A DNA stretch of 64,000 nucleotides from positions 2,816,001 to 2,880,000 of the forward strand of contig OY761159.2 in NCBI GenBank assembly GCA_963664395.2, written 5' to 3'. The stretch is from Candidatus Binatia bacterium. GTDB lineage: Bacteria; Desulfobacterota; Binatia; Bin18. Below, piece after piece: positions 7,133-25,578 of this stretch. The notes beneath the pieces are model-generated. The model was not told the origin of the DNA. It worked only from the letters and a program-made list of their open reading frames with translations, and searched no databases. A program made the position numbers and the translations under genes. The stretch's first letter is position 1. The number at the start of each line of letters is the position of its first letter.

Positions 7133-8728
7133 ATGGCTACCGTCACCCGCGCCCTTATTAGCGTGAGCGACAAACGTGGCATCGTTGACTTGGCTCGCGG
7201 CCTTGCCGAACTTGGTATCGAAATTCTCTCAACCGGCGGCACGGCAAAAGCGCTGACCGAAGCCGGGATTGCAGTCACGCCTGTCGAAGATTTTACCGGC
7301 TTTCCTGAAATGCTCGATGGTCGAGTGAAGACCCTCCACCCAAGAATACACGCCGGGATTCTGCATCGCCGGAGCGACCCTAGCCATCTTCAGGCCCTGG
7401 CCGAGCATGACCTCAAACCCATTGATCTGGTTGTGGTCAACCTCTACCCGTTTGAACAAACGGTTGCCAAGCCGGACTGTCGCTTTGCCGATGCGATTGA
7501 AAATATCGATATTGGCGGGCCGTCTCTGTTGCGCGCTTCAGCCAAGAATCACGCCGACGTTGGCGTCGTCGTTGAGCCGGACGATTATCCGGCCATTCTG
7601 GCTGCGCTCAAAGAGCACGGCGAACTCTCCGCCGGGCAAAAGCTCGACTTGGCCAAAAAAGCGTTTCGATTAACCGCCCGCTACGATGGGGCCATTGCAG
7701 ACTACTTGGGCAGCCTGAATGGACCAGATGGAGAAGAGCGACTGCCTTTTGGCGAAACGCTCCACCTGCACTACATCAAGGCTCAAGATCTCCGGTATGG
7801 AGAAAATCCGCACCAGTCCGCGGCTTTTTATCGCAGCCCGGTCATCCAGGAGTCGTGTATTGCCAACGCCAGGCAGCTCCAGGGCAAGGAGCTGTCGTAT
7901 AACAATATCGTTGATGCCAATGCGGCGTTTGCCCTGCTCCAGGAGTTTGATGAAATTGCGGCGGTTGCCATTAAACATACCAACCCGTGTGGCGTGGCAA
8001 CGTCGGCAGATTCCCTGGCCGACGCCTTTCGTAAGACGCGTGCGTGCGACCCGGTTTCGATTTTTGGCGGCATTGTTGGGTTGAATCGCGCCGTTGATGC
8101 AGCGACCGCGCAAGAAATCCTGAACCTGTACGAGCAGGGCTTTCTTGAGATTCTGATTGCCCCGAGCTATTCAGCCGCTGCCCTGAATATGCTGGCGTCG
8201 TCCAAGCGACTCCAGAACATCCGTTTGCTGGAAATCCCGGAGATCGTCGACGCCCAGCCGGCCCGCTATGAAGCCAAGCCGATTATTGGTGGATTGCTGT
8301 ATCAGGAACGCGATACCGGCCAAGTCAATGTGCAAGACTGCGAGGTCGTGACACAACGTCAGCCGACTGACGCTGAGTACCAAGCCCTGGCCTTTGCCTG
8401 GCGGATATGTAAACACGTCAAGTCCAACGCCATTGTGCTGACCTCAAACGATCAGGTCATTGGCGTGGGCGCCGGCCAGATGAGTCGGGTTGACTCTGCC
8501 AAGATCGCCGTTTCCCGAGCGCAGGACTTGGGATTGGACACACACGGGGCAGTGGTCGGCTCGGATGCGTTTTTCCCTTTTCGTGACGGGCTCGACGTGG
8601 TGGCCCAGGCCGGCGCAACCGCCGCGATTCAGCCCGGCGGCAGCCTGCGCGACAAGGACGTTATCGCTGTCGCGGATGAGCACGGCATGGCCATGCTTGT
8701 CACTGGCATGCGGCATTTTCGGCATTAA
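7133..8728 (+). CDS. purH: Bifunctional AICAR transformylase/IMP cyclohydrolase
   Basis: [45 protein letters not shown]. Confidence 0.98.
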
Positions 8729-8730
8729 CG

Positions 8731-10002
8731 ATGAAAGTGCTTGTGATTGGCAGTGGCGGACGGGAACACGCCCTGGTGTGGAAGATCCGTCAGAGCCCGC
8801 GCGTCTCGCAAATCTACTGCGCTCCCGGGAATGCCGGGATTGCTGACCATGCCGAACTGGTTGGACTTGCCGCGGACGATATTGATGGTCTGTGTGCCTT
8901 TGCTGAAAAAGAACACATTGGGCTGACTGTTGTCGGTCCTGAGTTGCCCTTAAGTCTCGGGATCGTCGATCTGTTTGAGTCGCAGGGCCTGCGCGTGTTC
9001 GGCCCGAATCGGGCGGCCGCCCAGCTCGAAGGCAGTAAAGCCTTTAGCAAAGAACTCATGCGGCAGCAGGGCGTTCCAACGGCCGCCTATGGTATTTTTA
9101 ACGACCCGGACGAAGCCAGCCGTTATCTCGAAAAAGTCGAGGCGCCGATTGTGGTCAAAGCCGACGGACTGGCCGCGGGAAAAGGCGTCCTGGTGTGTGC
9201 AACCCAGGCCGAAGCCCAAGGCGCACTCACAGCAATAATGCGCGAGCGGCAGTTTGGCGTAGCGGGCGACCGAGTGGTGATTGAAGAGTTCCTGCACGGC
9301 GAAGAGGCCTCGTTTCTCGCCTTGACAGATGGAACCCATATCCTGCCCCTGGCCTCTTCTCAGGATCACAAGCAAGTCTTTGACGAAGACCGGGGGCCGA
9401 ATACCGGTGGGATGGGAGCCTACTCGCCGGCGCCGGTCGTTACGCCGGCGTTGACTGCTCAGATTGTTCAAGACGTGCTCACGCCGGTCGTCCGGGGGCT
9501 CAAACAACGCAATATTGTGTATAAAGGCGTCCTCTACGCCGGCCTGATGATCCGTGACGGCCAGGCGAAAGTCCTCGAATTCAACGTTCGCTTTGGCGAC
9601 CCGGAATGTCAGCCGCTCATGCTCCGCCTCAAGTCAGATATCATAGAGGTCATGGAGGCCGTGATTGATGAACGCCTCGACCGGGTGACCCTCGACTGGG
9701 ATGACCGCTCCGCGGTGTGTGTCGTGCTCACGGCCGAAGGCTATCCCGGCAGCTATGAGAAGGGGCGAGAGATTGCCGGGGTAGAGCAGTTCGCGGCCTG
9801 GCAGGACGGGGCGGTTTTTCATGCCGGCACAAAACGACAGGCGAACACACTTGTCACAAATGGTGGCCGCGTGCTGGGCGTGACTGCGACCGGTACGGAT
9901 ATTAGTCAGGCAATTGCCGCGACGTATCAGGCGGTGCAACGCATCTCGTGGCCGGGCATGCACTATCGTCGGGATATTGGCCAGCGAGCAGTGGGACGCT
10001 AA
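8731..10002 (+). CDS. purD: Phosphoribosylamine-glycine ligase
   Basis: GSGGREHAL, KADGLAAGKGV, GPNTGGMGAYSP, EFNVRFGDPE. Confidence 0.98.
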   Translation: MKVLVIGSGGREHALVWKIRQSPRVSQIYCAPGNAGIADHAELVGLAADDIDGLCAFAEKEHIGLTVVGPELPLSLGIVDLFESQGLRVFGPNRAAAQLEGSKAFSKELMRQQGVPTAAYGIFNDPDEASRYLEKVEAPIVVKADGLAAGKGVLVCATQAEAQGALTAIMRERQFGVAGDRVVIEEFLHGEEASFLALTDGTHILPLASSQDHKQVFDEDRGPNTGGMGAYSPAPVVTPALTAQIVQDVLTPVVRGLKQRNIVYKGVLYAGLMIRDGQAKVLEFNVRFGDPECQPLMLRLKSDIIEVMEAVIDERLDRVTLDWDDRSAVCVVLTAEGYPGSYEKGREIAGVEQFAAWQDGAVFHAGTKRQANTLVTNGGRVLGVTATGTDISQAIAATYQAVQRISWPGMHYRRDIGQRAVGR

Positions 10003-11978: not shown

Positions 11979-12254
11979 AAATGGATCTCCTCTCTTCTCG
12001 TTCCGTCTCGCTTCTCTCTATACGTCCTGTCGCGCCTGAGGCATACACAAAGGCCCCGCAAACCCAGGGGTGGGCTCTCGCCCTCGAACAATGCTCGGAC
12101 CAGTTTTCCTGTTATAACATTACGTAGGCGAAAAGGAAGGTAGCAAATTCTCGTTTTGATTACAATGAAAAAGAAAAAAGAGGAATTTATTGTCCCCCTA
12201 CCCATGAGATGATAGCATCCTTATTCTCGGCATAACAATACGCTTTGGCATAAC

Positions 12255-13178
12255 ATGGACACACAAGATCCGACCCATAGCCCCGCACTCTCGGCGGTTA
12301 TCCTGAGCGGTGGAAAAAGCGCGCGCATGGGGAGGACGAAGGCCCTTCTCCCATTTGGCGAAAGGCCCCTTATCGCTCACCTGATCCAGCGTCTGTCCCA
12401 ACGCTTTTCCGATATCGTTGTAGTCGCCGCGCCGGACCAGACACTTCCGTCCTTACCGGTCACTCTCGTTCATGATGAAGTGGCCCATCAGGGGCCGGTC
12501 GGAGGCATGTACTACGGCCTGCGAGCGATACGCGGCACGGCAGCCTTCGTCACGTCGTGCGATACCCCCTTTCTCCAGCTTCCTTTCATCGACTATCTCA
12601 TCTCGCAGCTTGACCACAACAGCCATGTCTATGATGTGGTCGTCCCCTTTTGGCAAAACCGGCTTCAGCCGCTTCACGCCGTGTATCGCCGGCGCGTCGT
12701 CCCCTATTTACAAGAACAACTCGCTGCCCAACGCCTCCGCCCGGTCTATTTGTATGACGCGGTGCCAACCCGAAAAGTGGTCCCGGAGGAGATCAAACGC
12801 TTTGACCCCGAGGGGCTCAGTTTCCTCAATATGAATACGGAGGCTGACTACCAAGCGGCGCTGGTTCGTTGGCGTCATCTCTATACCCGAATCTCCTGCA
12901 CAGTTGAGTTATTCGGTGTAGCGCGCCTCAGAGCAAACAGCCCACACGTCTCGCTGACGCTCTCGGCTGGGGCAACGCTCGAGGATGCGCTGACTGTATT
13001 AGGGGCGGAATGTCCTGCGCTCTTGGGTTCGGTGCTGTCTGCGGATGACACGGGACACGCCCGCTTACAGAGCGGATATGCGTGTAATATAAATGGGAAA
13101 GATTTCGTTCGAGACGCGCACACCCGTATCCAGGAAGGGGACAATCTGCTGCTCTTGTCGAGCGATGCAGGCGGATAA
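12255..13178 (+). CDS. mobA: Molybdenum cofactor guanylyltransferase fused to a MoaD/ThiS ubiquitin-like domain
   Basis: ILSGGKSARMG..KALL, GPVGG, CDTPF, QPLHAVY, FLNMNT; C-terminal VELFG...SDAGG. Confidence 0.88.
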   Translation: MDTQDPTHSPALSAVILSGGKSARMGRTKALLPFGERPLIAHLIQRLSQRFSDIVVVAAPDQTLPSLPVTLVHDEVAHQGPVGGMYYGLRAIRGTAAFVTSCDTPFLQLPFIDYLISQLDHNSHVYDVVVPFWQNRLQPLHAVYRRRVVPYLQEQLAAQRLRPVYLYDAVPTRKVVPEEIKRFDPEGLSFLNMNTEADYQAALVRWRHLYTRISCTVELFGVARLRANSPHVSLTLSAGATLEDALTVLGAECPALLGSVLSADDTGHARLQSGYACNINGKDFVRDAHTRIQEGDNLLLLSSDAGG

Positions 13179-13181
13179 ACC

Positions 13182-14984
13182 ATGTACGGGTTCCACGGCC
13201 GTCTGCTCCATATAGACCTCACGACGCAGTCATATACCTGGCAGGATATCGCCGCGTCTCGTCTCACGGCAGTGCTGGGCGGTGTCGGCCTTGGCGCGGC
13301 TTTGCTGTACGACTTCGCACCACCTCAAGTGGAGCCGCTCTCCGCCGAGAATCCGCTCATTTTCACCAGCGCGCCGCTTGTCGGAACAGGCCTCACCACA
13401 ACCGCCAAGTATGCAGTTGTCACCAAGTCTCCCCTCACTGGCTTTATTGCGGATTCACTTTCTTCCAGTTTTTTTGCCTTGGAGCTCAAGCGGACCGGAG
13501 TTGATGCGCTCGTGATTACCGGCGCGGCCGAGCAGCCCACGTATCTCCAGATAACGGACCGCGGAGTTCAATTTAGAGATGCGGCTCATCTCTGGGGAAC
13601 GAGTGCAGCTGAAACGGAAGCCACCGTTCAGAGAGAACTCCACGCTGAAGAGGATACACAAGTCCGTGTGGCTGCCATTGGTCGAGCAGGGGAGAACCTC
13701 GTTCGTTTTGCAACCCTCAGCAACGAAGGTCGGCATGCCGGACGGGGTGGCATCGGGGCGGTTTTCGGCGCCAAGAAGCTCAAGGCCGTTGCCCTGCGTG
13801 GTCATCACCGCATTGCCGTGGCTGATAAAAATGAAGTGGAAAAGATCGCGGCCTCATTACGCGAGCGGAGTGTTGGGCCACACACGGCGAAGTACCGCGA
13901 AATTGGGACGGTCGCAAATCTGGCCGTCTTTAATCGCTTGGGCAGTCTCCCTACCCATAACTTTCAATACGCAACATTCTCGCAGGCAGAATCACTGAGT
14001 GGAGAAGCGCTCATCACAAACAGTTTCAGCCGCAGGCATGGCTGTGCCTCGTGCACGATCCGCTGTGAGCGCCTGTTTCGGTCCCTCGACGGAGAAGAAC
14101 AACGGCTTGAATATGAAACCCTCTTCGCATTCGGCCCGCTCTGCGGCATCGGCAAGCCGGACGATGTGCTGCGTGCCGCCCGGCTGTGCGATCAGTACGG
14201 CCTGGATACCATCAGTACCGGCGGCACCATTGCCTGGGCGTTGGAATGCGCGGAAAAAGGTCTCTTACCTGAAGGACACGCAGCGGGCCTGTCCTTTGGC
14301 AATGCCGAGGCAATTCTCGCCCTTATTCCAGACATTGCGCACAAAAAGGGACTGGGAGCGCTCTTGGCCGAGGGCTCGCGTCGGGCCGCGGCAGCCCTCG
14401 GTACTGAAGCAGAGGCGGTCGCCATACACGTCAAAGGCATGGAGCTACCAGGCTACGAGCCACGCAGCCTCAAGACCATGGCGCTCGGTTTGGCGGTCAG
14501 CCCACGTGGAGCCTGCCACAACCGCTCAGGGGCCTATGAGGCGGATTTCTCAGGACAAGTAGATCGTCTGCAAGCCGATGCGGGTCGTGGAGCGCTCGTG
14601 GCGGCGTCCGAAGATTTTTCTGCCGTATTGGACTCACTGATTGTGTGTAAATTTTTGCGCAAGTGTTTTGATGATTTCTACGCCGAAGCAGCTCACCTTG
14701 TGAGCGCAGTGACGGGTTGGGATTGTACCGGCGCAGACCTCAGGCAGGTTGGCGAACGTGTCAATACAATCAAGAAACTTTTTAATGTGCGTGCGGGGTG
14801 GCAATCCGAGGACGACTGGCTGCCTCCCCGCCTCTTAACGGAGCCGCTGTCTGGCGGCATTGCTCAGGGTGTGAGCCTGACAGCTGATGAGCTACGCCTG
14901 ATGATTCAAAGCTATTATGCAGCCCGAGACTGGAACGAGCAGGGGTTTGTCGGGGAGGAGAAAAAGCGAGCGTTAGGTCTCTGA
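13182..14984 (+). CDS. aor: Aldehyde:ferredoxin oxidoreductase family (W/Mo-pterin)
   Basis: KSPLTG, AIGRAGENLV, GRGGIGAVFGAKKLKA, CASCTIRC, EYET, GLDTIS, RGACH. Confidence 0.93.
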   Translation: MYGFHGRLLHIDLTTQSYTWQDIAASRLTAVLGGVGLGAALLYDFAPPQVEPLSAENPLIFTSAPLVGTGLTTTAKYAVVTKSPLTGFIADSLSSSFFALELKRTGVDALVITGAAEQPTYLQITDRGVQFRDAAHLWGTSAAETEATVQRELHAEEDTQVRVAAIGRAGENLVRFATLSNEGRHAGRGGIGAVFGAKKLKAVALRGHHRIAVADKNEVEKIAASLRERSVGPHTAKYREIGTVANLAVFNRLGSLPTHNFQYATFSQAESLSGEALITNSFSRRHGCASCTIRCERLFRSLDGEEQRLEYETLFAFGPLCGIGKPDDVLRAARLCDQYGLDTISTGGTIAWALECAEKGLLPEGHAAGLSFGNAEAILALIPDIAHKKGLGALLAEGSRRAAAALGTEAEAVAIHVKGMELPGYEPRSLKTMALGLAVSPRGACHNRSGAYEADFSGQVDRLQADAGRGALVAASEDFSAVLDSLIVCKFLRKCFDDFYAEAAHLVSAVTGWDCTGADLRQVGERVNTIKKLFNVRAGWQSEDDWLPPRLLTEPLSGGIAQGVSLTADELRLMIQSYYAARDWNEQGFVGEEKKRALGL

Positions 14985-15029
14985 GATAATGCCAAAAACA
15001 GAAAAACTGAAGGTAGTGAGTTCTTTATT

Positions 15030-15401
15030 ATGTACGAATCAAAAAATGTCTTAGGCGAAACGCTTCAGGTGTGTAACTCGCGCCCGTTAACCGGTTTTTA
15101 TCGGGATGGTTGTTGCAACACCGGCAAAGAAGACGTCGGGCTGCACACCGTGTGTACACAAGTCACCAAAGAGTTTTTGGAATTCTCCAAGGCCAAAGGC
15201 AATGATCTGAGTACGCCCCGCCCGGAGCTCGGCTTTTACGGACTCCAGCCCGGAGATTGTTGGTGTCTGTGTGCGCTACGCTGGAAAGAAGCCTATGAAG
15301 CGGGAGCCGCGCCAGTGATTCTACTAGCGTCCACCCACGCGACGACTCTCGAATATATTCCCTTGCAACTGCTGAAGGAGCACGCCCGGGACCTGCATTA
15401 G
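15030..15401 (+). CDS. DUF2237 family protein
   Basis: NVLGETL..C...PLTGFYRDGCC, GNDLSTP, GDCWCLCA.RWKEA. Confidence 0.93.
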   Translation: MYESKNVLGETLQVCNSRPLTGFYRDGCCNTGKEDVGLHTVCTQVTKEFLEFSKAKGNDLSTPRPELGFYGLQPGDCWCLCALRWKEAYEAGAAPVILLASTHATTLEYIPLQLLKEHARDLH

Positions 15402-15580
15402 AGCGAGTCTCCCGACGGGCGAGTGCTCGGTGGTAGCCCTGCCCGCTATCCCCTCCAGGGAGGGAATTATATACCACGTTACCCAGCCCCCGGAAGATTC
15501 GGATCACCCTCCATAGCCCAGCGTTATTTCTTGTCAAAAAGCCGCAAGAACTTCAGACGCTTACCAGACTAAGGGGGGAT

Positions 15581-15790
15581 ATGATGAGAGAAATACGACA
15601 AGTCCCGGACACTTCAAAGCAGGAACAAGAACCGGGGCATCTTCATCTTAGGATTCCGCCAGAGAGCGACCCGTACATGACACGCTCAGAGGTTGACGGT
15701 CTCATTACAGATCGGCTGATGCAGTTCCACAAGGGCCTTGTGGAACGAGGGCAAATTCCGCCTATTCGTCCAAAAACAAAGGATGATTAA
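15581..15790 (+). CDS. Small hypothetical protein (IS passenger)
   Basis: 69-aa ORF with AAGGGGGG RBS; no recognisable family. Confidence 0.45.
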   Translation: MMREIRQVPDTSKQEQEPGHLHLRIPPESDPYMTRSEVDGLITDRLMQFHKGLVERGQIPPIRPKTKDD

Positions 15791-15892
15791 ACCAGACCAG
15801 ATAACCGACTACGGGTCCTGCCCATTACAGCCGAGGGGGGATTCACACTCGGGGTTTCCCTCGATGATGTCATTCTCCTCCCGTAGGCGTTT

Positions 15893-16057
15893 CACTACGG
15901 CACCTATCACAAGATGAGCATTAAGCATTTGAGCCGGTATGTGAACGAATTTGCGGGGCGGTACAACGTCCGGCCCTTGGACACGATCACACAAATGGCT
16001 ATGGTGGCGCGGGGCTTGGTAGGGAAGCGGCTGCGGTATCAGGATTTGATTGGGTAG
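15893..16057 (+). pseudogene. IS1595/ISXO2-like transposase C-terminal remnant
   Basis: HYGTYHKMSIKHLSRYVNEFAGRYN...GKRLRYQDLIG*; DDE core absent. Confidence 0.9.
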
Positions 16058-16066
16058 CGAGGCGTT

Positions 16067-17560
16067 ATGGCAGAGCCGAACTGGAAAAATCAAACCATTT
16101 GGACGAGGGATTGTCTCGATATTATGCGGGGGATGAATGCCGAATCGGTAGACCTCCTTTACCTTGATCCCCCGTTTAATTCCAATGCGAATTATGCGGC
16201 TCCGATAGGGAGCAAAGCGGCAGGTGCGGCGTTTCGGGATACGTGGGGCTTAGACGATATTAACCTGGCCTGGCATGGCGAGATTAAGCACAATTCTCCA
16301 GGACTCTATGCGCTGTTGACGGCAACCCGTGAGATACATGGCGACTCCATGATGAGCTACCTGATTTATATGGCGATTCGGATCATGGAGATGAGAAGAT
16401 TGTTGAAGCCCACAGGTTCGATCTACTTACACTGCGATCCGACCGCGAGCCACTACCTAAAACTGTTGATGGATGCCGTGTTCGGAGCAGACAGGTTCCG
16501 GTCGGATATTAGTTGGAAGAGGAGTAGTGCACACAGTGACACCAAGCAGGGGCGGAAACAACACGGCAGAATTCATGACACCCTTTTGCATTACACTCGT
16601 GGAAAATCATGGACGTGGAACCCCGTATATACAGAATATGGCCGGGATTATGTTGAAGAATTCTACAAACACAGGGACCAAGAGACGGGGAGACGCTACC
16701 GTAAGGATAACTTGACTGCGGCCAAACCAGGAGGCGACACGAGCTATCACTGGCGCGTGAAACGGCCCGTTGGTGGCGAGTGGCAAGCCGATCTCGACGG
16801 GGAATGGAAAAATCCGCTTGCGGGATGGGAATACCGGGGGGCTCCACCCTACAAGAATCGCTATTGGGCGTATTCCAAGCAAAATATGCGTGACTTTGCA
16901 TACCAAGGACGGCTTGTCTATGCGCGGACAGGGATGCCGAACTATAAGCGTTTTCTGGATGAAATGCCGGGAGTCCCATTACAGGACTTTTGGGCGGACA
17001 TTAGACCGATTGGATCGAAAGCCCGAGAGCGGACAGACTACCCAACCCAAAAACCTAAAGTTCTCCTAGAGCGGATTATTCAATCAAGTTCCAACACAGG
17101 GGATATGATTCTCGACCCGTTCTGTGGATGTGCCACGGCATGTGTGGCCGCCCAAAGTTTAGGCCGACAATGGGTTGGGATTGATATTTCTTCAAAGGCG
17201 GCTGACCTCGTGCAGTCTCGCATGCGGGAAGAATTAGGATTGTTTTTTCAAGGCTCGCACCGCAAGGATGTTCCAACCCGCACGGACCTTGGCAAAGTCA
17301 TTCGATACAATGACCCGCGCAACAAGAAGTATTTGTATGGCGAGCAAGGGGGTTACTGTAATGGGTGCGAGGAGCATTTTCAGATACAGCATTTCCACGT
17401 CGATCATATTATTGCCAAGTCTCTGGGCGGGACAGACCATATCAGCAACTTGCAACTGCTGTGTGGGAGTTGCAACACGATTAAGGGAACGAAATCACAG
17501 GAAGCCTTGATTGTCGCCTTGACGGACAAGGGCTATCTCAAGCGGAAGATGGCGGCATAA
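16067..17560 (+). CDS. N6A/N4C DNA methyltransferase (beta class) fused to C-terminal HNH nuclease
   Basis: YLDPPF, YPTQKP, LDPFCGCAT; C-terminal CNGC...HVDHII...NLQLLCGSCN. Confidence 0.92.
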   Translation: MAEPNWKNQTIWTRDCLDIMRGMNAESVDLLYLDPPFNSNANYAAPIGSKAAGAAFRDTWGLDDINLAWHGEIKHNSPGLYALLTATREIHGDSMMSYLIYMAIRIMEMRRLLKPTGSIYLHCDPTASHYLKLLMDAVFGADRFRSDISWKRSSAHSDTKQGRKQHGRIHDTLLHYTRGKSWTWNPVYTEYGRDYVEEFYKHRDQETGRRYRKDNLTAAKPGGDTSYHWRVKRPVGGEWQADLDGEWKNPLAGWEYRGAPPYKNRYWAYSKQNMRDFAYQGRLVYARTGMPNYKRFLDEMPGVPLQDFWADIRPIGSKARERTDYPTQKPKVLLERIIQSSSNTGDMILDPFCGCATACVAAQSLGRQWVGIDISSKAADLVQSRMREELGLFFQGSHRKDVPTRTDLGKVIRYNDPRNKKYLYGEQGGYCNGCEEHFQIQHFHVDHIIAKSLGGTDHISNLQLLCGSCNTIKGTKSQEALIVALTDKGYLKRKMAA

Positions 17561-17668
17561 AGAGGGGAAGCATGAAGAAAAAGAAGGCACCTCTTTCAGG
17601 GCTTGAACCGATTGGCCAGACCCCAGCGAGCAGACACCATTTCTAATGAAGGTATAAGGTAAATACGT

Positions 17669-18406
17669 ATGGGGGAAAAAGAAAAGGGACTAAAAGAGTT
17701 GGAAATCTTTAATCATTTCGCCTCCTTATCTGGATTGCGCATTGTACCAGGTACAGCGAAGAAGAGAGAGCCGCCTGAGCCGGACATTGTTTGTGAGGTA
17801 GAGGGTTTTAGGGGAGCAAGAGAAAAAGTCGGGTTCGAGCTTACGGAGTTGAGAAGCGAAGACCTGAGTGAAATAGACGGCAGGCAAGAAAAATATACAA
17901 GGAAGTTTAAGGAGTGGAAGGAGGGGGGAAGGGTAGGGAAAGCTCCACAGTTAGAAATGAGAGAAAAACACACAAAAGCTTTCTGGATGGATGAGCAAAA
18001 TGATGTTGTGAAACGTCTTCTTACGGAGAAATTTAAGAAACCTTATGAAGGGGAGTATCCGAAGGAACTGATTGTTTATGAGATGGGGAACAGTTTTTTA
18101 CCAGTTGATGTGATGCTTCCGACCATTGGGGAGCATCTTGTTGAATGTCGGACCTTTGGAGTGTTTAGGAAAGTGTGGTTTTTTTGCCGTAAAAACAGTC
18201 TCGAAGAAAGGAGTCCTTTTTACGCAGATGTCAGTTCCATTGCACGGGACAAGATACGTAAGCTGGACCAAATTCCACCCGGTAAGAAGCCGTGCTCTTT
18301 TTGTATGACCCCTCTTGATCCTCCTTTGCCAGGTGCTCCAGCCTACTTTTGCAGCTCCTTATGTCTGGACAGGAAGAATCGTGGAGAAGATTGGATGCCT
18401 CACTGA
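17669..18406 (+). CDS. Hypothetical protein, PD-(D/E)XK-like motif and C-terminal Zn finger
   Basis: EPPEPDIVC...GFELTEL; CSFC...FCSSLC; AT-richer than backbone. Confidence 0.6.
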   Translation: MGEKEKGLKELEIFNHFASLSGLRIVPGTAKKREPPEPDIVCEVEGFRGAREKVGFELTELRSEDLSEIDGRQEKYTRKFKEWKEGGRVGKAPQLEMREKHTKAFWMDEQNDVVKRLLTEKFKKPYEGEYPKELIVYEMGNSFLPVDVMLPTIGEHLVECRTFGVFRKVWFFCRKNSLEERSPFYADVSSIARDKIRKLDQIPPGKKPCSFCMTPLDPPLPGAPAYFCSSLCLDRKNRGEDWMPH

Positions 18407-18524
18407 AAATTTGTTGAACTTGCGTCATAACTTACGCACTCTCCCCCATTTTTGCTATATTAAAGTATGAATAGGAAGAACGCCTGCTGCCTGTGGCCTG
18501 CGGGTAACGTGGTATATAATTCCC

Positions 18525-18560
18525 TCTCGGGAGGGGTGCCGCGTAGCGGCGGGGTGGGTT
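18525..18560. repeat. Right half of the REP element interrupted by the IS
   Basis: tctcgggaggggtgccgcgtagcggcggggtggg is close to the reverse complement of the 5888-5934 element. Confidence 0.7.
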
Positions 18561-18691
18561 CCTCTGGTGTAGTATCCGGCGAGAGGGGATAGCCGTAGAA
18601 GCTTTTCCGTTTTGTCTACTCATCTTCTATGACGGCTTGGGCCATTGTATAGAAGAGCCAACACCCCGACCTATTCTGCCCTTAGCGTCGA

Positions 18692-18722
18692 TGTCGGGTT
18701 ACGCTCCGCTAACCCGACCTAC
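18692..18722. repeat. GTAG-type REP hairpin
   Basis: Minus strand GTAG-GTCGGGTTAGCGGAGCGTAACCCGAC-A, an imperfect palindrome headed by GTAG. Confidence 0.7.
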
Positions 18723-18749
18723 TAGATTGCTGCTCAGTAAGTCGTTCGG

Positions 18750-20039
18750 TTACTCGTCTCCACCCTCGTCGCCTTCGTCCTGAGTTTCCTGCTCCAACTC
18801 AGGTGATTCTTCATATTGAGGTATAAACTCAGTTCCCTCCGTCTCCGGACGAGCGTTCGGGTACAATCGCAACAGATCCCATTCGTTTATGGCAGCCCGG
18901 ACCTTATACCGCATCCTGCCTTGATACCCTGCCCCACCTGCCTTTGCTTCCAATTGTGGTGCATCCCATCCATAGGCCGTGCCATGGATTTGTCTCAAGG
19001 TCTCGACTGTCGCATTCACATCTTCATCAGTCGGGGGCTTTAATTGAATAACGTCTCGTTCGAGGGTCCTCATCCCTGTTTCGGCTCTAGCCGCGGCAGT
19101 ATCGTCTCCTCGTGAGCGCAACCGTTGGGCTGCGTAGCGGCGGTCCTTCTTGCTATGCTCGTTATCGCTTAAAATAGCCGAGGCAAAGTCGCTCGTCACC
19201 GTGCCAACAACAATAAGACCTGGGTATTCTTCATTTTCGATCTTTCCCCACAAACGGGTCAACTCTGCATAAGACTTGGCTCTCTGCAAAACAGAGTAGG
19301 AACCGACCAATTCGATCTCGTCCAACAATATAACCCAGCCTTTGTAACCGGCGCCCTTCACCAGTTCTGTGGCAAAACGTAAATGTTGGGGGGGTAATTC
19401 CCTCGCCTTCGGGGCTCTGAAGGAGTAATTAGGTAATTGATCTATTTGCCTAAGCCCACCCTTTACGTCAGGAACCCGTATCTTTTCTCCTGACCAGAAC
19501 GCTCTGATTTTGCTCATAAGTTCAAAATCATTCGCCCTTTCATGAACCATCAGGGTTGCTGGAAATATGGCATGCAACCTGTTCTGCTCGGAGTTGGCCC
19601 ACTGAAAAAAACGGGTGTATGCCTCTGATGAGCCGTCAAGTTTGAGTCCCAGTTCTTCCATGAGCTGCCCGGTTCGGTCCGGCATCCGGCCGTGGTCTAT
19701 TGCGGACTTGAAAACCTTGTCCATGTTATACAGCGGTGTCTCTTTACTGATGGTTACTTTGCTGCACACAAAACCTTGCGACAGGGCTTGGTGTTCCAGG
19801 TATGAGAGTAAGTGAGACTTGCCCGTCCCAAAATCGCCGGAGACCAACATGCCTAATGAACTGGGAGGGGGATCGTCCGAATCGGCTGCCTTGGACAGCA
19901 GTTCTTTGAACTGGTTTTCTACTTGCGATTGATTACATCCTAGTATCTCCACAGCCTTTTCGTTAGGCACACCATTGCGGAGTCCCTCCAGGGCACGTCT
20001 GCAAGTCAATGCGTCTTTTCCGTCTATGTCGATATTCAT
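18750..20039 (-). CDS. BrxD/DUF2791-like P-loop ATPase (intact Walker motifs)
   Basis: RRALEGLRNGVP N-terminus, Walker A GDFGTGKSH, Walker B VILLDEIE, IHGTAYGW C-terminal motif. Confidence 0.85.
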   Translation of the reverse strand: MNIDIDGKDALTCRRALEGLRNGVPNEKAVEILGCNQSQVENQFKELLSKAADSDDPPPSSLGMLVSGDFGTGKSHLLSYLEHQALSQGFVCSKVTISKETPLYNMDKVFKSAIDHGRMPDRTGQLMEELGLKLDGSSEAYTRFFQWANSEQNRLHAIFPATLMVHERANDFELMSKIRAFWSGEKIRVPDVKGGLRQIDQLPNYSFRAPKARELPPQHLRFATELVKGAGYKGWVILLDEIELVGSYSVLQRAKSYAELTRLWGKIENEEYPGLIVVGTVTSDFASAILSDNEHSKKDRRYAAQRLRSRGDDTAAARAETGMRTLERDVIQLKPPTDEDVNATVETLRQIHGTAYGWDAPQLEAKAGGAGYQGRMRYKVRAAINEWDLLRLYPNARPETEGTEFIPQYEESPELEQETQDEGDEGGDE

Positions 20040-20055
20040 GGGGCCTACCTTTTCT

Positions 20056-21012
20056 TCAGGATATGCGTACCAAGGACGCCAGGGGATTCACTAGGTTTTC
20101 ATCCCGAACATCATCCATGATTCTTGTCCTAAGGGCCTGATAAATTCCAAACCCTCTGGAACGGGCGTCGGGATCGGGGAATGTGCGATCAGTCATGATG
20201 AGCAGCAACGCTCCAGTCAATTGGTCTGTTCCATCGACGAACTCTCTCAGAAGCTCGTAATGGTCCATGACCATTGCTTTTGTGTAATACCTCAGACCGT
20301 CTCTTGGATTCCGAGGAATCGCCACGCGGGAGTTGTCGATCAATATCACAGTTCCCCCACATCCTGTGTGTCGGAACCAGAAGAGGGCCGATTCAATGAA
20401 ATGCCTCGCGGTAACACGGTTTATAGCGGTGTTGATGGAAAACGATCTCACACTGCTCACTTTTGTATTCGTTCCTGTGAGCCAATCAATCAACGGTTGA
20501 CCTCCATATTGATTTGGACGACTGTTCTCTGACCAGCAAAGGTGGGTCATGGCGACTCTGAAATCTTTGGTCATGCGGTATTCTTTGAAGACCTCGTCTT
20601 GTATTTTTGGCCGTAATTCCTGAAGTACAAATTGCGGGTCAAGATTGTTGACGTTTGCTACAGTTTCAAAGATGTTATCAGCCGTTCCGGGGTCGATATT
20701 ATCGACCTGATAGCCTCCCTCTTCGGCCAAACGCAAAATCAGGCGTCGGGCCAACCGACGCCAATCTACTTGGCTCGCCATCTCGGAAAAAATATCCTGC
20801 GGCATATGGACTCTGGTCTCCGCTGCGTCAAGTTTCACGACAACGTAATCCAGGTCTCTGCACCGGCTCCCTATCGCTTCATATAGTGCCGGTTTCCGGC
20901 TTTCTGGCGTCACGGCAAACTTGATGGACGCACCACCCTCTGCGATAAAAGTCGATAAGTATTCGTCATCAAGAACTTTGAGCCAATCGTAAAGTGGTAT
21001 TTCGTTCGCCAT
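20056..21012 (-). CDS. BrxD/DUF2791-like paralog with degenerate Walker motifs
   Basis: GGASIKFAV followed by no GxxGxGKS; DWLTG; VILIDNS in the Walker B position; GIYQALRTRI. Confidence 0.75.
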   Translation of the reverse strand: MANEIPLYDWLKVLDDEYLSTFIAEGGASIKFAVTPESRKPALYEAIGSRCRDLDYVVVKLDAAETRVHMPQDIFSEMASQVDWRRLARRLILRLAEEGGYQVDNIDPGTADNIFETVANVNNLDPQFVLQELRPKIQDEVFKEYRMTKDFRVAMTHLCWSENSRPNQYGGQPLIDWLTGTNTKVSSVRSFSINTAINRVTARHFIESALFWFRHTGCGGTVILIDNSRVAIPRNPRDGLRYYTKAMVMDHYELLREFVDGTDQLTGALLLIMTDRTFPDPDARSRGFGIYQALRTRIMDDVRDENLVNPLASLVRIS

Positions 21013-21812
21013 TATTCACTCCTGGAAAACTGGATTCCGTAATACGTGATAAGCTGATCGTCTGGGCCTATAAACTGGAAGGTGCCGCGGGCTCTTTTCG
21101 TGCCTGTTGAAGACGGGAAAGATACACGCGCCCCTTTCTTGGTATGGGACGGACCGTTCGCTTCCAAGGAATAAATGTCCCTGGCAAAATCTATATTGTG
21201 ATACTCACGCTTACTTCCGGGCAAAGAGGTAAATGCCTTATACACCTCGGCCAAAGGGACGACAGGACCATATCCACCGTTGATTAAACGTGTAGAAGAC
21301 TGTTCTCTCGATATGAGTAAGTACATCTCGTGCAACGCCTCTAGGAAAGCATCTGACTTGAATCGGGGCGGTTTTTTCTGTCTTTCAATTAGGAATTCTA
21401 CCAAGCGGGATGGTCTTAAAGTCGAGACCTTCTTTCTGTCAATTCTGACAGCGCGGTCCCCAGGCAAGATTTGAGCTATGGACGGATACGAAATCAACCG
21501 GCCATCTCTTTCATGGATGCTCAATTTCTTTTCTTTTGCTGTATGACACAGCTCGTTTACATAGTGTTCTTTGAGATAGTTTTCTTCTTCCTCATCCGTA
21601 AATGGCCAAGTTTCAATAGCGTTCGCAACTTCCTGCCTCAGAGAACCCAGCGCGGGATCAAGCCTTGAACAAACCCTTTTAATTGCGTTGATGTTTCCGT
21701 CCTGGGCTGCCTTCTGCAATGCCCTGGCAATTTTTACCAAGTCTGTTGCAGACTTCAGAGTCGAAGCCGCAGCTTCTTCCACGTCGTCGAATGCTCGTTC
21801 AAAGCTTGCCAT
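21012..21812 (-). CDS. Hypothetical protein, first gene of the ATPase cassette
   Basis: 266 aa, GGAGGG RBS, TAATG overlap with the next gene; helical N-terminus. Confidence 0.85.
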   Translation of the reverse strand: MASFERAFDDVEEAAASTLKSATDLVKIARALQKAAQDGNINAIKRVCSRLDPALGSLRQEVANAIETWPFTDEEEENYLKEHYVNELCHTAKEKKLSIHERDGRLISYPSIAQILPGDRAVRIDRKKVSTLRPSRLVEFLIERQKKPPRFKSDAFLEALHEMYLLISREQSSTRLINGGYGPVVPLAEVYKAFTSLPGSKREYHNIDFARDIYSLEANGPSHTKKGARVSFPSSTGTKRARGTFQFIGPDDQLITYYGIQFSRSE

Positions 21813-21885
21813 TAATTAATGCCCTCCGTCTGTCATCTGAGCCCTAGTCCGTGTTCTTCGGCGTCCACATACGCTTAGAGTTGAC

Positions 21886-21901
21886 TGAGAAAATTTTCTC
21901 A
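21886..21901. promoter_or_regulatory. Perfect 16-bp palindrome TGAGAAAATTTTCTCA (putative operator)
   Basis: About 75 bp upstream of the cassette start, overlapping a minus-strand TTGAGA (-35-like). Confidence 0.5.
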
Positions 21902-22205
21902 AGGGATTCGTTGCCGGTTAGTTTAGGATAGGGCTCTATCTGGAATACCGGACCGGGGGGAAATCTAGCGCTAGAATCTCAGACACACAACCCCAGAGTA
22001 AGGATAGGTCGTATATCTGATCGAATTTTTCTCCTGAGAGTACTAGGAGGCAGGCAGTAAGATTTCGTCTAGGTCGCTCAGGCAGTCCGATGGACCGTAC
22101 GCGCAGCAAGCGTATGTCACTGGAAGGTGTGATAGCGATAATGTTGGATTATGCTCCGCTAGTCCGACTTACGGCTATCCTAGTGAAACGACTCTTGGGC
22201 AGGAC

Positions 22206-22763
22206 TCACCCGAACAGCCGCCGCACCGCACACCGAAAGCCCGGCAGCACGTCCGCTCCGCTCAGCTCGTCATCTTCCCCCAGCGCCTGAACGTCATGCG
22301 ACGAGCGATAGATGTAGATTGTTCGGGTTGCGGGTTCTATAACCCACACCAAACGAGTCCCGGCCGAGAAATACTCGGCGATTCTGGTTTGTACGGCGCT
22401 GAAACGGTCTGAAGGCGAGGTGACCTCGACTGCCAGGTCCGGCGCAAACGGCCAATAGGTTTTGGGAATACCGGTCTCGGGAATACGCGCCTTGGCAATA
22501 AAGGCGGCATCTGGGGCGCGGACGATATCGGGGACGCGCTGCAAGATAAAACCGGTTTCCGCGCCGCTGCAGATGCCCAGGTCGTGCGCTTCAACGTACT
22601 CATCAAGTATACGACCGATCCGGACTGTCAAAACTCCATGCTCTCCGCCGGTCGGTGCCATACGAATCAGCTCTCCTGCGACGAGTTCGTATTTGTAATC
22701 GTCATCGGGAAGGGCGAACAGCTCTTCGGCGGTCATGAGTGCGTGCTGGGCGAGAGTGGTCAT
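22206..22763 (-). CDS. Uma2 (DUF820) family endonuclease-like protein
   Basis: YELVAGEL, VRAPDAAF, APDLAVEVTSPSD, EYFSAGTRLVWVIEP, VLPGF; start after AAGGAG. Confidence 0.93.
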   Translation of the reverse strand: MTTLAQHALMTAEELFALPDDDYKYELVAGELIRMAPTGGEHGVLTVRIGRILDEYVEAHDLGICSGAETGFILQRVPDIVRAPDAAFIAKARIPETGIPKTYWPFAPDLAVEVTSPSDRFSAVQTRIAEYFSAGTRLVWVIEPATRTIYIYRSSHDVQALGEDDELSGADVLPGFRCAVRRLFG

Positions 22764-22797
22764 CGACTTCTCCTTCTTACGTGTCTCTCCACTCCAC

Positions 22798-25578
22798 TCA
22801 TCCTTCAAATCCAGGCGCGGTTCGGTTTACGCTCACCTGAACCGCGCAATACTTGAACTCGGGAATTTTCCCGTAGGGGTCCAGCGCTTCGTTGGTCAGC
22901 AGGTTGGCGGCTGCCTCCTGATAACAAAACGGAATAAAAATATCACCCCGCCGCAGGCTATCATCCGCGCGTGCGTAGATCGTGATCTCGCCGCGCCGTG
23001 AGGCAATGGTTAACAGGTCTCCCTCCGAACCGTCCACAGCGGCCAAGTCCGCGGGATGAATGCTGATCACCGGGTGCGGTTCTATTGCGTTCAGAACACT
23101 GGCGCGGCGGGTCATGGCGCCGGTATGCCAGTGTTCCAACTGACGACCGGTAATAAGAACAAACGGAAACTCGGCATCCGGCAACTCGTCTGCCTGAATC
23201 AGACGCGCGGGGACGAACCGGGCCGTACCGTCCGGGGTCGGAAAGTTCGCTTGAAACACGACCGACCGGCCCGGGTCGTCTTCGGTCCAGCAGGGATAGG
23301 TGATGGAGTCCAGGCGTTCGAGCCGCTGCCAGCTTATGCCCTCGATGCCGGGTATGGCCCAGCGCATCTCTTCGTAGACCGCCGCGGTATCGGGATAGCG
23401 CCAGTCCAGTCCCATCCGGCGCGCCATATCTTGAATGATGTCCAGGTCCTGACGGGCGTCGCCCGGCGTGTCGAGCGCTTTGCGGCCAAGCTGTACGCGC
23501 CGGTCGGTGTTGGTGAACGTGCCGGTCTTCTCCGGGAGGGCGGACGCCGGCAGGACCACGTCGGCAAACGCCGCGGTCTCGGTCAAGAACAAGTCCTGCA
23601 CGACCAGATGATCGAGCCGTGCCAAAGCCTGCCGCGCGTGATGCAGGTTGGGGTCGGACATGGCCGGGTTCTCGCCCATGATGTACATCCCGCGCACTTG
23701 GCCGTCGAGAATGGCATCGATAATCTCGACTACGGTCAAGCCGGGCCGCGGGTCCAGGGAGACGCTCCACAGTTCCTCGAAGCGTCTGCGCGCCTCGTCG
23801 TCATCGACCCGCTGATAGGCGGGGAACATCATCGGAATCAAACCGGCGTCGGACGCGCCCTGGACATTGTTCTGGCCCCGCAGCGGGTGCAATCCGGTGC
23901 CGGGGCGACCAATCTGGCCGGTCATCAGCGCGAGCGCAATCAGACACCGCGCATTGTCTGTGCCATGCACGTGCTGCGAGATGCCCATACCCCAGAAAAT
24001 CATTGAACCAGACGCGGTTGCGTAACGGCGGGCCACCTCCCGGATGGTCTCGGCCGCTATCCCGCAAATGGGTTCCATCTCCTCAGGGCTAAAGCCGGCC
24101 ACGTTTTGTTTGATAAGGTTAAAGCCTTGGGTGCGCTGCTCGATAAATTCCTGATGAACCAAACCCTCCTCAATGATAGTGTGCATCATGGCGTTGAGCA
24201 GGGCCACGTCAGTGTCTGGCTTAAACTGGAGATAATACGCTGCATGGCGGGCCAGCTCTGTCCGACGTGGGTCCATGACTATCAGCGTCTTGCCGGCTTT
24301 GGCCGCATTCTTCATAAAGGTCGCCGCAACCGGATGGTTCTCCGGCGTGTTGGAACCGATGATAATAATGCACTCCGCCTCCGCGACGTCTTCGACCTGA
24401 TTGGATACCGCGCCGGACCCAATGCCTTCTAAGAGGGCAACGACCGACGAGGCATGACACAGCCGCGTACAGTGGTCTACATTGTTCGTCCCAAATCCGG
24501 TCCGAACCAATTTTTGAAAGAGATAGGCTTCTTCGTTGCTGCCCTTTGCCGAGCCAAATCCGGCGAGCGCTTGGCCGCCTCGTTCGTCGCGGATTTTTTT
24601 CAGGCCGCCGGCAGCACGGTCGAGCGCTTCTTCCCAGGATGCCTCGCGGAACACGCGGGACACAGCGGCCGGGTCGAGCGTGGCGTCTTCTGCCGACTTG
24701 GGCGCGCCCGACTTGCGGATTAGCGGTGTCGTGAGCCGCTGCGGATGGTTCACGTAATCGAAGCCGTACCGGCCTTTGACACACAGCCGGCCGTGGTTGG
24801 ACGGACCGTCACGCCCGGTGACGTGGAGAATCTTGTTGTCTTTGATGTGATAGGTGAGCAGGCAGCCCACCCCGCAATAGGGACAGACAGAATCCACCGT
24901 TTTGTCCGGCTCAACCAGTCCCACCCCGCCGGCCGGCATAAGCGCTCCGGTCGGACAGGCCTGGACACATTCACCACAGCCAACGCACGAACTGGCCCCC
25001 ATCGGGTCGTCCACATCAAAGACGATCTTGGCCTGACTGCCGCGCAGGGCGTACCCAATGACATCGTTCACCTGCTCTTCACGGCAGGCACGCTGACAGC
25101 GGGTACACTGAATACAGGCATCAAGATTAACGGCAATGGCCGGATGCGACCCATCCGATTTTGGCTGCCGACGTGGTGCGAAGCGCGGCTTTCCGACTGC
25201 GAGCGCACGCGCCCAGGTGTCCAATTCCGAGTCTCGCGTATAGGCGGTCTCGACAACGTCCGAAAGCAGTAGTTCAAGGACCATCTTTTGGGAATGGCGG
25301 GCGCGCTCACTCGTCGTTGCAACGTCCATACCTTCCTGTGGCGTCCGGCAGCATGAGGCAGCAAGGGTACGCTCGCCCTTCACTTCCACCACACAGGCGC
25401 GGCAATTGCCGTCCGGCCGGAGCCCGTCTTTGTGGCACAGGTGAGGAATGTCAACCCCGTGACGCCGGGCGGCCTGTAAAATTGTTTCACCGGGGAGCGC
25501 ATCGACCGCCTGTCCGTCCAAAAGAAAAGACATCGGATTTGTGATTTCAGGATTTGCGACTTCAGAAATGGCAGCCAT
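22798..25578 (-). CDS. fdhF: Formate dehydrogenase alpha subunit (Cys ligand)
   Basis: 2Fe-2S and 4Fe-4S motifs, CPYCGVGC, DHCTRLCH, PLRGQNNVQG, KIPEFKYCA; TAATG coupling to the beta subunit. Confidence 0.95.
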   Translation of the reverse strand: MAAISEVANPEITNPMSFLLDGQAVDALPGETILQAARRHGVDIPHLCHKDGLRPDGNCRACVVEVKGERTLAASCCRTPQEGMDVATTSERARHSQKMVLELLLSDVVETAYTRDSELDTWARALAVGKPRFAPRRQPKSDGSHPAIAVNLDACIQCTRCQRACREEQVNDVIGYALRGSQAKIVFDVDDPMGASSCVGCGECVQACPTGALMPAGGVGLVEPDKTVDSVCPYCGVGCLLTYHIKDNKILHVTGRDGPSNHGRLCVKGRYGFDYVNHPQRLTTPLIRKSGAPKSAEDATLDPAAVSRVFREASWEEALDRAAGGLKKIRDERGGQALAGFGSAKGSNEEAYLFQKLVRTGFGTNNVDHCTRLCHASSVVALLEGIGSGAVSNQVEDVAEAECIIIIGSNTPENHPVAATFMKNAAKAGKTLIVMDPRRTELARHAAYYLQFKPDTDVALLNAMMHTIIEEGLVHQEFIEQRTQGFNLIKQNVAGFSPEEMEPICGIAAETIREVARRYATASGSMIFWGMGISQHVHGTDNARCLIALALMTGQIGRPGTGLHPLRGQNNVQGASDAGLIPMMFPAYQRVDDDEARRRFEELWSVSLDPRPGLTVVEIIDAILDGQVRGMYIMGENPAMSDPNLHHARQALARLDHLVVQDLFLTETAAFADVVLPASALPEKTGTFTNTDRRVQLGRKALDTPGDARQDLDIIQDMARRMGLDWRYPDTAAVYEEMRWAIPGIEGISWQRLERLDSITYPCWTEDDPGRSVVFQANFPTPDGTARFVPARLIQADELPDAEFPFVLITGRQLEHWHTGAMTRRASVLNAIEPHPVISIHPADLAAVDGSEGDLLTIASRRGEITIYARADDSLRRGDIFIPFCYQEAAANLLTNEALDPYGKIPEFKYCAVQVSVNRTAPGFEG

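Follow-up and report, generated by a model that had tools for sequence, protein, structure and literature searches.

A conserved, horizontally spread cassette with a BrxD-like ATPase, found without its usual helicase gene in a Candidatus Binatia bacterium

Introduction

Shango is a defense system made of a TerB-like protein (SngA), an ATPase (SngB) and a DEAD/DEAH helicase (SngC), and it is described as protecting Pseudomonas and E. coli from phages (PMC10250203). In bacteriophage exclusion (BREX) of type 2, a related pairing is found. BrxD is described as an AAA+ ATPase of the ORC/Cdc6 class that forms a tight dyad with BrxHI, a Ski2-like helicase, and it is proposed to load or activate BrxHI (PMC12839542). 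Here we describe a locus that resembles both systems. It lies in a stretch of 64,000 nucleotides from a Candidatus Binatia bacterium (assembly GCA_963664395.2, contig OY761159.2, positions 2,816,001 to 2,880,000), called the window below, and contains three genes that we refer to as A, B and C. Two of the three products, those of B and C, match the family that includes BrxD.

We found that A-B-C is the core of an unnamed, horizontally spread cassette whose commonest form has a fourth gene, D, that encodes an SNF2 helicase. On balance, we favor the view that the lineage of the window lost D and kept A-B-C, and that the likeliest role of the core is defense. The targets would most likely be phages or other mobile DNA, a role inferred from architecture and distribution only.

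The three genes and their conservation

All three genes are on the minus strand and were taken from a listing of open reading frames (ORFs). A (21012..21812) encodes 266 amino acids (aa), B (20056..21012) encodes 318 aa, and C (18750..20039) encodes 429 aa. Base 21012 is common to the stop codon of A and the start codon of B, which overlap as TAATG (..GAATAATGGCG..), and 16 bases separate the TGA of B from the ATG of C. The GC content is 0.495 across 18750-21812, compared to 0.572 and 0.586 in the flanks. A first-pass annotation, made from the letters alone, had described three packed, co-oriented ORFs, with this overlap and gap, that are AT-richer than their flanks, and both the coordinates and the base composition agree with that description.

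We scanned one genome per species and recovered 72 loci; the locus counts given here and below rest on tblastn tables. The order and spacing of A, B and C were the same in 69 of the 72, and the triad is a conserved unit, as had been proposed. The exceptions were a locus that runs off its contig (L053) and two remnants (L070 and L072). The loci represent uncultured bacteria from eight or more lineages at the level of phylum or class. Going by record titles, they are in metagenome-assembled genomes of Dehalococcoidia and other Chloroflexota, Candidatus Binatia, Nitrospirales, Entotheonella/Tectimicrobiota, Latescibacterota, Alphaproteobacteria, Terriglobia, Vicinamibacterales, Thermodesulfobacteriota, Methylomirabilota and Acidimicrobiales. 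Among close relatives the cassette was patchy: it was present in 1 of 27 other genomes of the window's genus, in 6 of 36 of its family, and in 1 of 24 genomes of the class outside that family. No relative of A was found in 72,556 plasmid and 50,697 phage records.

The boundaries of the unit were visible in comparisons of nucleotide sequence. Locus L001 (G042), from a different family of the same order, was 92% identical to the window, only across 18746-21826; that is, across the three ORFs. The two copies are at unrelated sites. Homology between the window and the non-syntenic loci L001, L002 and L003 stopped in the interval 21804-21826, no more than 14 bases from the start of A. Because the identity to L001 is limited to the three ORFs, and because L001 is in another family and at another site, we conclude that the three-ORF unit moved horizontally without a helicase gene. 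Gene order and the patchy distribution indicate that A-B-C is the conserved core of a horizontally spread cassette.

The fourth gene

D was directly 3' of C in 48 of the 72 loci, a count that includes 2 loci cut by contig ends and 2 remnants. It was absent in 22 and could not be scored at a contig end in the other 2. Because D follows C in this many loci, the usual unit is A-B-C-D. The window has no helicase gene after C. Since the commonest form has four genes, the window contains a helicase-less derivative and not a system that was built as a triad, and the earlier view of a stand-alone three-gene system is not supported.

The genome of the window has no D orthologue elsewhere. Its best match to D (7.9e-12, 34% identity) is inside a 1000-aa frame and is a distant SNF2 relative only. 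Four of five other helicase-less genomes had no relative of D at E<=1e-5; the fifth had a 38%-identical SNF2 gene ~1 Mb away.

The product of D is ~700 aa and matches the Pfam families SNF2-rel_dom (1e-46) and Helicase_C (1.5e-20). Its best matches in PADLOC were ZorD (8.1e-80), DpdE (4.2e-64) and DrmD (2.2e-37), and the PADLOC matches were confined to the helicase core, residues ~250-690. SngC was not among the best 25 of these matches (44 families were hit). The N-terminal 180-250 residues had no sequence match in the PDB (E<=10) and no consistent Pfam family among the 41 members scanned. In several lineages, including the sister clade of the window's helicase-less clade, this N-terminal domain is a separate ORF of ~180 aa (gene fission), for which the ESM Atlas gave only unnamed clusters. 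The separate ORF was seen in L005, L008, L009, L012, L043, L052, L065 and L067 (at ~12040-12640 or the equivalent), and further in L007, L019, L022, L025, L027 and L051.

The proteins encoded by C, B and A

The product of C matched Pfam PF10923 with 84.3 bits (1.1e-23). PF10923 (BrxC_BrxD, formerly DUF2791) is a P-loop family with a gathering cut-off of 22.2 bits on the whole protein. In PADLOC, C matched BrxD (68.9 bits, 1.1e-19) and, more weakly, SngB (PDLC03959; 41.8 bits, 1.8e-11), for which the best stretch was residues 219-358 only. It scored 70.9 bits against the NCBIfam equivalog BREX_BrxD, below the cut-off of 350 bits. The intact Walker motifs and acidic tail that the first-pass annotation had credited to C are present: Walker A (GDFGTGKS) is at residues 68-75, Walker B (VILLDEIE) is at residues 236-243, and the C-terminal tail is acidic. 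The Walker A pattern G-x-F-G-x-G-K-S and the DE of Walker B were kept in 61 of 61 aligned members of the C family. C is predicted to be a BrxD/SngB-like ATPase with intact Walker motifs.

B also passed the cut-off for PF10923 (36.2 bits, 4.2e-9). Its match to PADLOC BrxD was weak (5.1e-6), and its score against BREX_BrxD (22.1 bits) was below the 350-bit cut-off. The sequence of B has no GxxGxGK loop and no Walker A motif of the form GxxxxGK[ST]. In a profile alignment, B reads LIDN opposite the LLDE of C. At the Walker B pair, 49 of 61 members of the B family have DN and none of the 61 has DE. That is, the missing loop and the change from DE to DN, which had been noted for the window's copy, are both confirmed, and DN is typical of the family. 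BLASTP found no significant similarity between B and C. A direct profile comparison with hhalign set the strand of B ending in LDN (..GtVilLDN) against the strand of C ending in LDE (..GWVvLLDE), with a probability of 16% and an E value of 0.0016. Because hhalign pairs these two strands, albeit weakly, we interpret B as an old, inactivated paralogue of C, with a degenerate P-loop/AAA+ domain of the BrxD type.

A had no match in Pfam (E<=0.1), PADLOC (E<=0.1), NCBIfam or PHROGs. It belongs to a sizable family: 598 proteins in a 90%-identity collection matched at E<=1e-3, and among 1.84 billion clusters at 50% identity there were 884 representatives at E<=1e-3 and 650 at 1e-10. Nearly all members are ~255-280 aa long, and there were no fusions among the 150 matches listed. 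Searches with individual members against Pfam (95 members, E<=5) gave only weak helical families, each in at most 10 of the 95 members, with a best E value of 0.0037. The ESM Atlas gave only unnamed clusters, and a profile of A found nothing beyond coiled-coil noise among PDB sequences.

We modeled A with AlphaFold2 from an alignment of 95 rows (predicted local distance difference test score, pLDDT, 88.4; predicted template modeling score, pTM, 0.71). The model has a long antiparallel helical hairpin at the N-terminus (residues 4-68), followed by two short helices and a small beta unit (~73-129, with the beta domain at ~100-129), and a helix-rich C-terminal part that closes in a beta hairpin. 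The small beta unit is the site of the most conserved polar residues of the family. E87 and D103 are invariant, and E101, D125, K127 and R133 are present in at least 90% of the 95 sequences.

Foldseek found no match in the PDB at E<=1e-3 for either the full model or a C-terminal model, and VIA with the whole model gave only generic coiled-coil matches, to residues 1-112. We also modeled residues 95-266 separately (pLDDT 82.6). With this model, almost all of the top 50 VIA rows aligned ~149-266 to proteins that contain winged helices, as judged by their titles. These included RPC62, ESCRT-II, kleisin C-termini (among them the JetA chain of Wadjet), ORC/Cdc6/Cdt1, RepE, RctB, forkhead and histone H1. 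Z was 4.5-6.1, which is below the level of a safe match, and the root-mean-square deviation was 2.6-4.5 for most rows. The C-terminal domain of A (~149-266) is likely winged-helix-like in the predicted model. The fold of A had been called unrecognized. This needs qualifying for the C-terminal third, which resembles a winged helix in the low-Z VIA matches. A prediction of the complex of C (residues 1-400), B and A, with A as the partner, gave a score of 0.02 against a mark of 0.32 and is uninformative either way.

Comparison with Shango and BREX

We compared the cassette to the systems that it most resembles. Like Shango, it appears to follow an operon logic in which a small non-enzymatic protein is followed by a PF10923/BrxD-type ATPase and a helicase of superfamily 2 (SF2), and C matches the SngB model, less well than it matches BrxD. 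Unlike Shango, it has an extra, apparently inactive ATPase paralogue (B), its helicase is of the SNF2 type and not the DEAD/DEAH type of SngC, and the window's copy has no helicase at all. Because A matched no PADLOC or Pfam model, there is no TerB/SngA family among its hits. The looser member-by-member Pfam scan described above likewise had no TerB family among the 25 listed of the 81 families hit, at the sequence level only.

The likeness to BrxD-BrxHI of type 2 BREX is in the link between a BrxD-type ATPase of the ORC/Cdc6 class and an SF2 helicase, and the best PADLOC and NCBIfam matches of C are to BrxD. The cassette differs from BrxD-BrxHI in having no PglZ, PglX, PglW or BrxC context, in the distance of C from the BREX_BrxD cut-off, in an SNF2 and not a Ski2-like helicase, and in A and B, which have no counterpart there. 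No BREX or ter partner was found in the window, as the first-pass annotation had stated. PglZ (PF08665), the only BREX partner that was searched for genome-wide, had no match in the 5.04-Mb, 95.9%-complete genome of the window, and the only matches to PF10923 in that genome are B and C. Among the 137 immediate neighbors of the 72 loci there was no core BREX family (e.g., PglZ) and no TerB family. These results speak against a remnant of a BREX or ter cluster.

A third set of systems is similar through the gene that is missing from the window. D strongly matches the models for three SNF2 helicases, ZorD of Zorya, DpdE of Dpd and DrmD of DISARM. Only the helicase core of D is shared, and the partner genes of those systems are absent.

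The cassette does not appear to have been catalogued. PADLOC-DB v2 (2023) has no model for A and gave only weak BrxD/SngB matches for B and C. We found no published description in a literature search, which left subscription journals and supplements out of its range. From these sequence comparisons, the cassette seems to work like Shango and BrxD-BrxHI and to be a member of neither. The pairing of a BrxD-type ATPase with a helicase recurs in type 2 BREX and in Shango, and the cassette would be a third, uncatalogued branch. New in this branch would be the duplication of the ATPase into a dead/live pair and the joining of this pair to a new protein family, A (884 clusters at 50% identity, with no Pfam match among those tested).

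The cassette may also bear on published counts of PF10923. Sponge metagenomes are described as containing PF10923 and a seawater metagenome as lacking it, with PF10923 counted under Pgl (PMC5099237). The cassette was common in lineages whose record titles or run labels point to sponge-associated communities, and one run that contained 72% of the sampled words of the window was labeled 'sponge metagenome'. Part of the sponge PF10923 counts booked as Pgl may come from the A-B-C cassette.

Copies without a helicase gene

A rival reading of the window's copy is that it is a decaying remnant; that is, that the triad lost its function with its helicase and the window's copy is merely not yet broken. 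We compared helicase-less and helicase-bearing copies in a tree of concatenated A, B and C from 60 loci and the window, leaving out 12 loci with a broken or missing gene. Helicase-less copies fell mainly into two clades. One contained the window, L015, L006, L011, L010 and L004; the other contained L028, L069, L032, L042, L040, L059 and L058. Three helicase-less loci (L013, L064 and L066) were isolated on the tree.

The ratio of nonsynonymous to synonymous substitution rates (dN/dS, by NG86) for A, B and C was 0.07-0.33 in helicase-less pairs, no higher than the 0.10-0.43 in helicase-bearing pairs. For the window and L001 it was 0.15-0.43. These ratios show that A, B and C are under purifying selection without D. 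The persistence of two deep clades with such ratios argues against decay, as do the passage of an intact three-ORF unit between families, the intact ORFs of the window, and the 16 of 23 helicase-less copies that are fully intact.

The distribution of broken copies favors decay. By a strict count, 7 of 23 copies without a helicase were broken, compared to 4 of 48 with one (Fisher p=0.03). Among near relatives of the window, C was broken in L001, L003 and L014. All three genes were broken in the collinear locus of the same genus, L016, and this is the only copy among the 27 other genomes of that genus. If a stop that affects only the tail (L002) and a terminal stop (L018) are discounted, 5 of 23 helicase-less copies were broken (p=0.14). 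Evidence on whether the helicase-less form is a wreck is mixed, leaning towards no, and we regard a functionless remnant as rather unlikely.

Proposed function and alternatives

By analogy, our best reading of the window's locus is that it would be a DNA-surveillance cassette, like Shango or the BrxD-helicase pair, minus its helicase. C would be the sole ATP-hydrolyzing subunit of an AAA+ assembly of the BrxD type (ORC/Cdc6 class). B would be a fixed inactive partner, and the AAA+ assembly of B and C would be asymmetric; the first-pass annotation had likewise supposed a hetero-oligomer of an active and a pseudo-ATPase. The coiled-coil hairpin and probable winged helix of A could make it a DNA-binding or adaptor subunit, and A could mediate dimerization. 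In the full form, the A-B-C complex would recognize foreign or aberrant DNA and then load or activate the SNF2 motor, a step that we model on SngB-SngC of Shango and BrxD-BrxHI of type 2 BREX. Without the helicase, A-B-C might be a self-sufficient DNA-binding module gated by ATP, or it might borrow a motor from the host. Helicase-less lineages that are under selection and move between families are a natural test of an ATPase module without its motor, and such a test bears directly on the idea that BrxD is a helicase loader.

Several observations weigh against a role in defense or against parts of this model, in addition to the excess of broken helicase-less copies and the broken genes in the near relatives of the window. 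No recognized effector domain was found in A-D. The immediate neighbors are mostly of housekeeping type, and just 23 of 137 are of defense or mobile type, with no control set for comparison. The direct alignment of B and C is weak (hhalign probability 16%), the winged-helix assignment of A rests on Z values of at most 6.1, and the plasmid and phage collections contain no member of the A family.

Some of these same observations would fit a module for DNA maintenance and not immunity, for instance genes with which a cryptic mobile element starts replication or loads a helicase, or a factor in chromosome processing or repair. The assignment of BrxD-type ATPases to the ORC/Cdc6 class (PMC12839542) is in keeping with such a role. 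So are the fold matches of the C-terminus of A to replication initiators and to ORC/Cdc6/Cdt1 winged helices (RepE, RctB and ORC), the lack of a recognized nuclease or toxin domain in A-D, and the housekeeping-type neighbors. Against an element of this kind, the 72 loci share no integrase, transposase or other gene of an element, no neighbor cluster is found in more than 11 of them, and the A family is missing from the 72,556 plasmid and 50,697 phage records. The patchy, accessory distribution, with transfer between families, also argues against maintenance, and we find it quite improbable.

In PD-(D/E)xK nucleases, an alpha-beta-beta-beta core carries the conserved motif E ... D ... (D/E)xK. 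The pattern E...D...DxK in A (E87, D103, D125 and K127) recalls these nucleases, as a reading of the motif only. If A were such a nuclease, A-B-C could be an autonomous, transferable immune module. The dead/live ATPase pair would be an ATP-gated sensor, A would be both the DNA reader, through its winged helix, and a minimal PD-(D/E)xK-like effector (E87, D103, D125-x-K127), and the helicase would be an optional booster. This is a distinctly doubtful proposal.

Finally, it is highly improbable that the locus arose by the breakdown of a type 2 BREX (Pgl) system or a canonical Shango/TerB cluster. B and C do match PF10923, and C matches the PADLOC models for BrxD and SngB. Against this reading, PglZ is missing from the genome, B and C are its only PF10923 proteins, C scored 70.9 of the 350 bits needed for BREX_BrxD, no SngA/TerB family was among the hits of A, and no core BREX or TerB family was an immediate neighbor at any of the 72 loci.

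Neighboring genes, repeats and expression

Locus L016, from the window's genus (G019), is collinear with the window across 9752-30623, including a Uma2 gene, A-B-C and DUF2237. The flanks are 78-85% identical and A-B-C is 86.8% identical. A 3.1-kb segment of the window (15402-18514) is absent from L016. It contains a gene for an N6/N4 DNA methylase that carries an HNH nuclease at its C-terminus as a fusion (16067-17560, 497 aa), together with an orphan gene (17669-18406, 245 aa) with no family match. Inverted repeats of 35 nt (15450-15484 and 18502-18536) mark its bounds; they are 94% complementary, and their core occurs six times in the genome. Because this segment is absent from the collinear L016, the methylase-HNH element is a later, separate insertion and no partner of the cassette. 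The Uma2-family gene (PD-(D/E)xK-type; 22206-22808, minus strand) is just upstream of the cassette, and its position there is kept only in L016, which indicates local synteny only. In L016, the 3' end of Uma2 is additionally present as two partial copies in tandem (8574-8694 and 8772-8842).

The window has two direct copies of a hairpin repeat of 40 nt, similar to repetitive extragenic palindromic (REP) elements. One (18683..18722) is just downstream of C and the other (22133..22172), of the same repeat family (D1), is upstream of A, between Uma2 and A. The copies are 78% identical with a spacing of 3450, and the two matches in the window compare to none in shuffled sequences. The bracketing of A-B-C by these copies is suggestive of a link to mobility. 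Because the hairpin (stem GTCGGGTTA/TAACCCGAC) has 45 copies in the 5.04-Mb genome at <=3 mismatches, it is no proof of a mechanism. In DNA sequencing runs, the depth of the REP-like repeat was 30-75x that of genes, and in one contig the hairpin is immediately next to the 35-nt repeat.

We classified the 137 immediate neighbors of the 72 loci by family; the classes are our own assignments. Twenty-three were of defense or mobile type (PIN, HigB, DUF4143/AAA_14, Uma2, restriction and methylase families, transposases, reverse transcriptase and GmrSD), 70 were of other families, mostly metabolic or transport, and 44 had no Pfam match. No neighbor gene was conserved beyond small clades. The window's locus had been said to have a defense-island context. 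That claim is weakened by the separate origin of the methylase-HNH insertion, by the local synteny of Uma2, and by the fraction of defense- or mobile-type neighbors (23/137, with no control set).

The intergenic region upstream of A (21813..22205, minus strand, 393 bp) presumably contains the promoter. Our scan found no minus-strand consensus promoter in it. In general, the scan for promoters and terminators was at chance level, with 3 promoter-like sites compared to 3.8 expected, and none was placed upstream of A. A search of 15000-23000 against Rfam gave no family at E<=0.1. One metatranscriptome library yielded contigs that were ~90-97% identical to the window and covered parts of A (21061-21223 and 21320-21791), part of B (20408-20573) and the end of C (18693-18941). 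Another run (X23), possibly of RNA, gave no coverage. These contigs, which give neither strand nor level and could come from DNA carry-over, are a weak hint of transcription in a close relative.

Three individual settings of the cassette were also observed. In L048, the four-gene cassette is between a gene for an RVT_1 reverse transcriptase (7481-8794) and a gene for a 1311-aa MmeI-like restriction-modification protein (14421-18356), and this is the clearest defense-island context among the 72 loci. In the remnant L070 (9001-13228), nothing is left of the cassette but the initial 70 codons of A and the final ~160 of the helicase. The DNA between these pieces carries, on the other strand, a gene for a Type ISP restriction-modification protein of 1151 aa. 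It looks like one defense-type gene replaced the cassette there. In L038, L053 and L056, all from Latescibacterota, a gene for a 424-aa ankyrin-repeat protein (~7475-8750) is directly upstream of A on the same strand.

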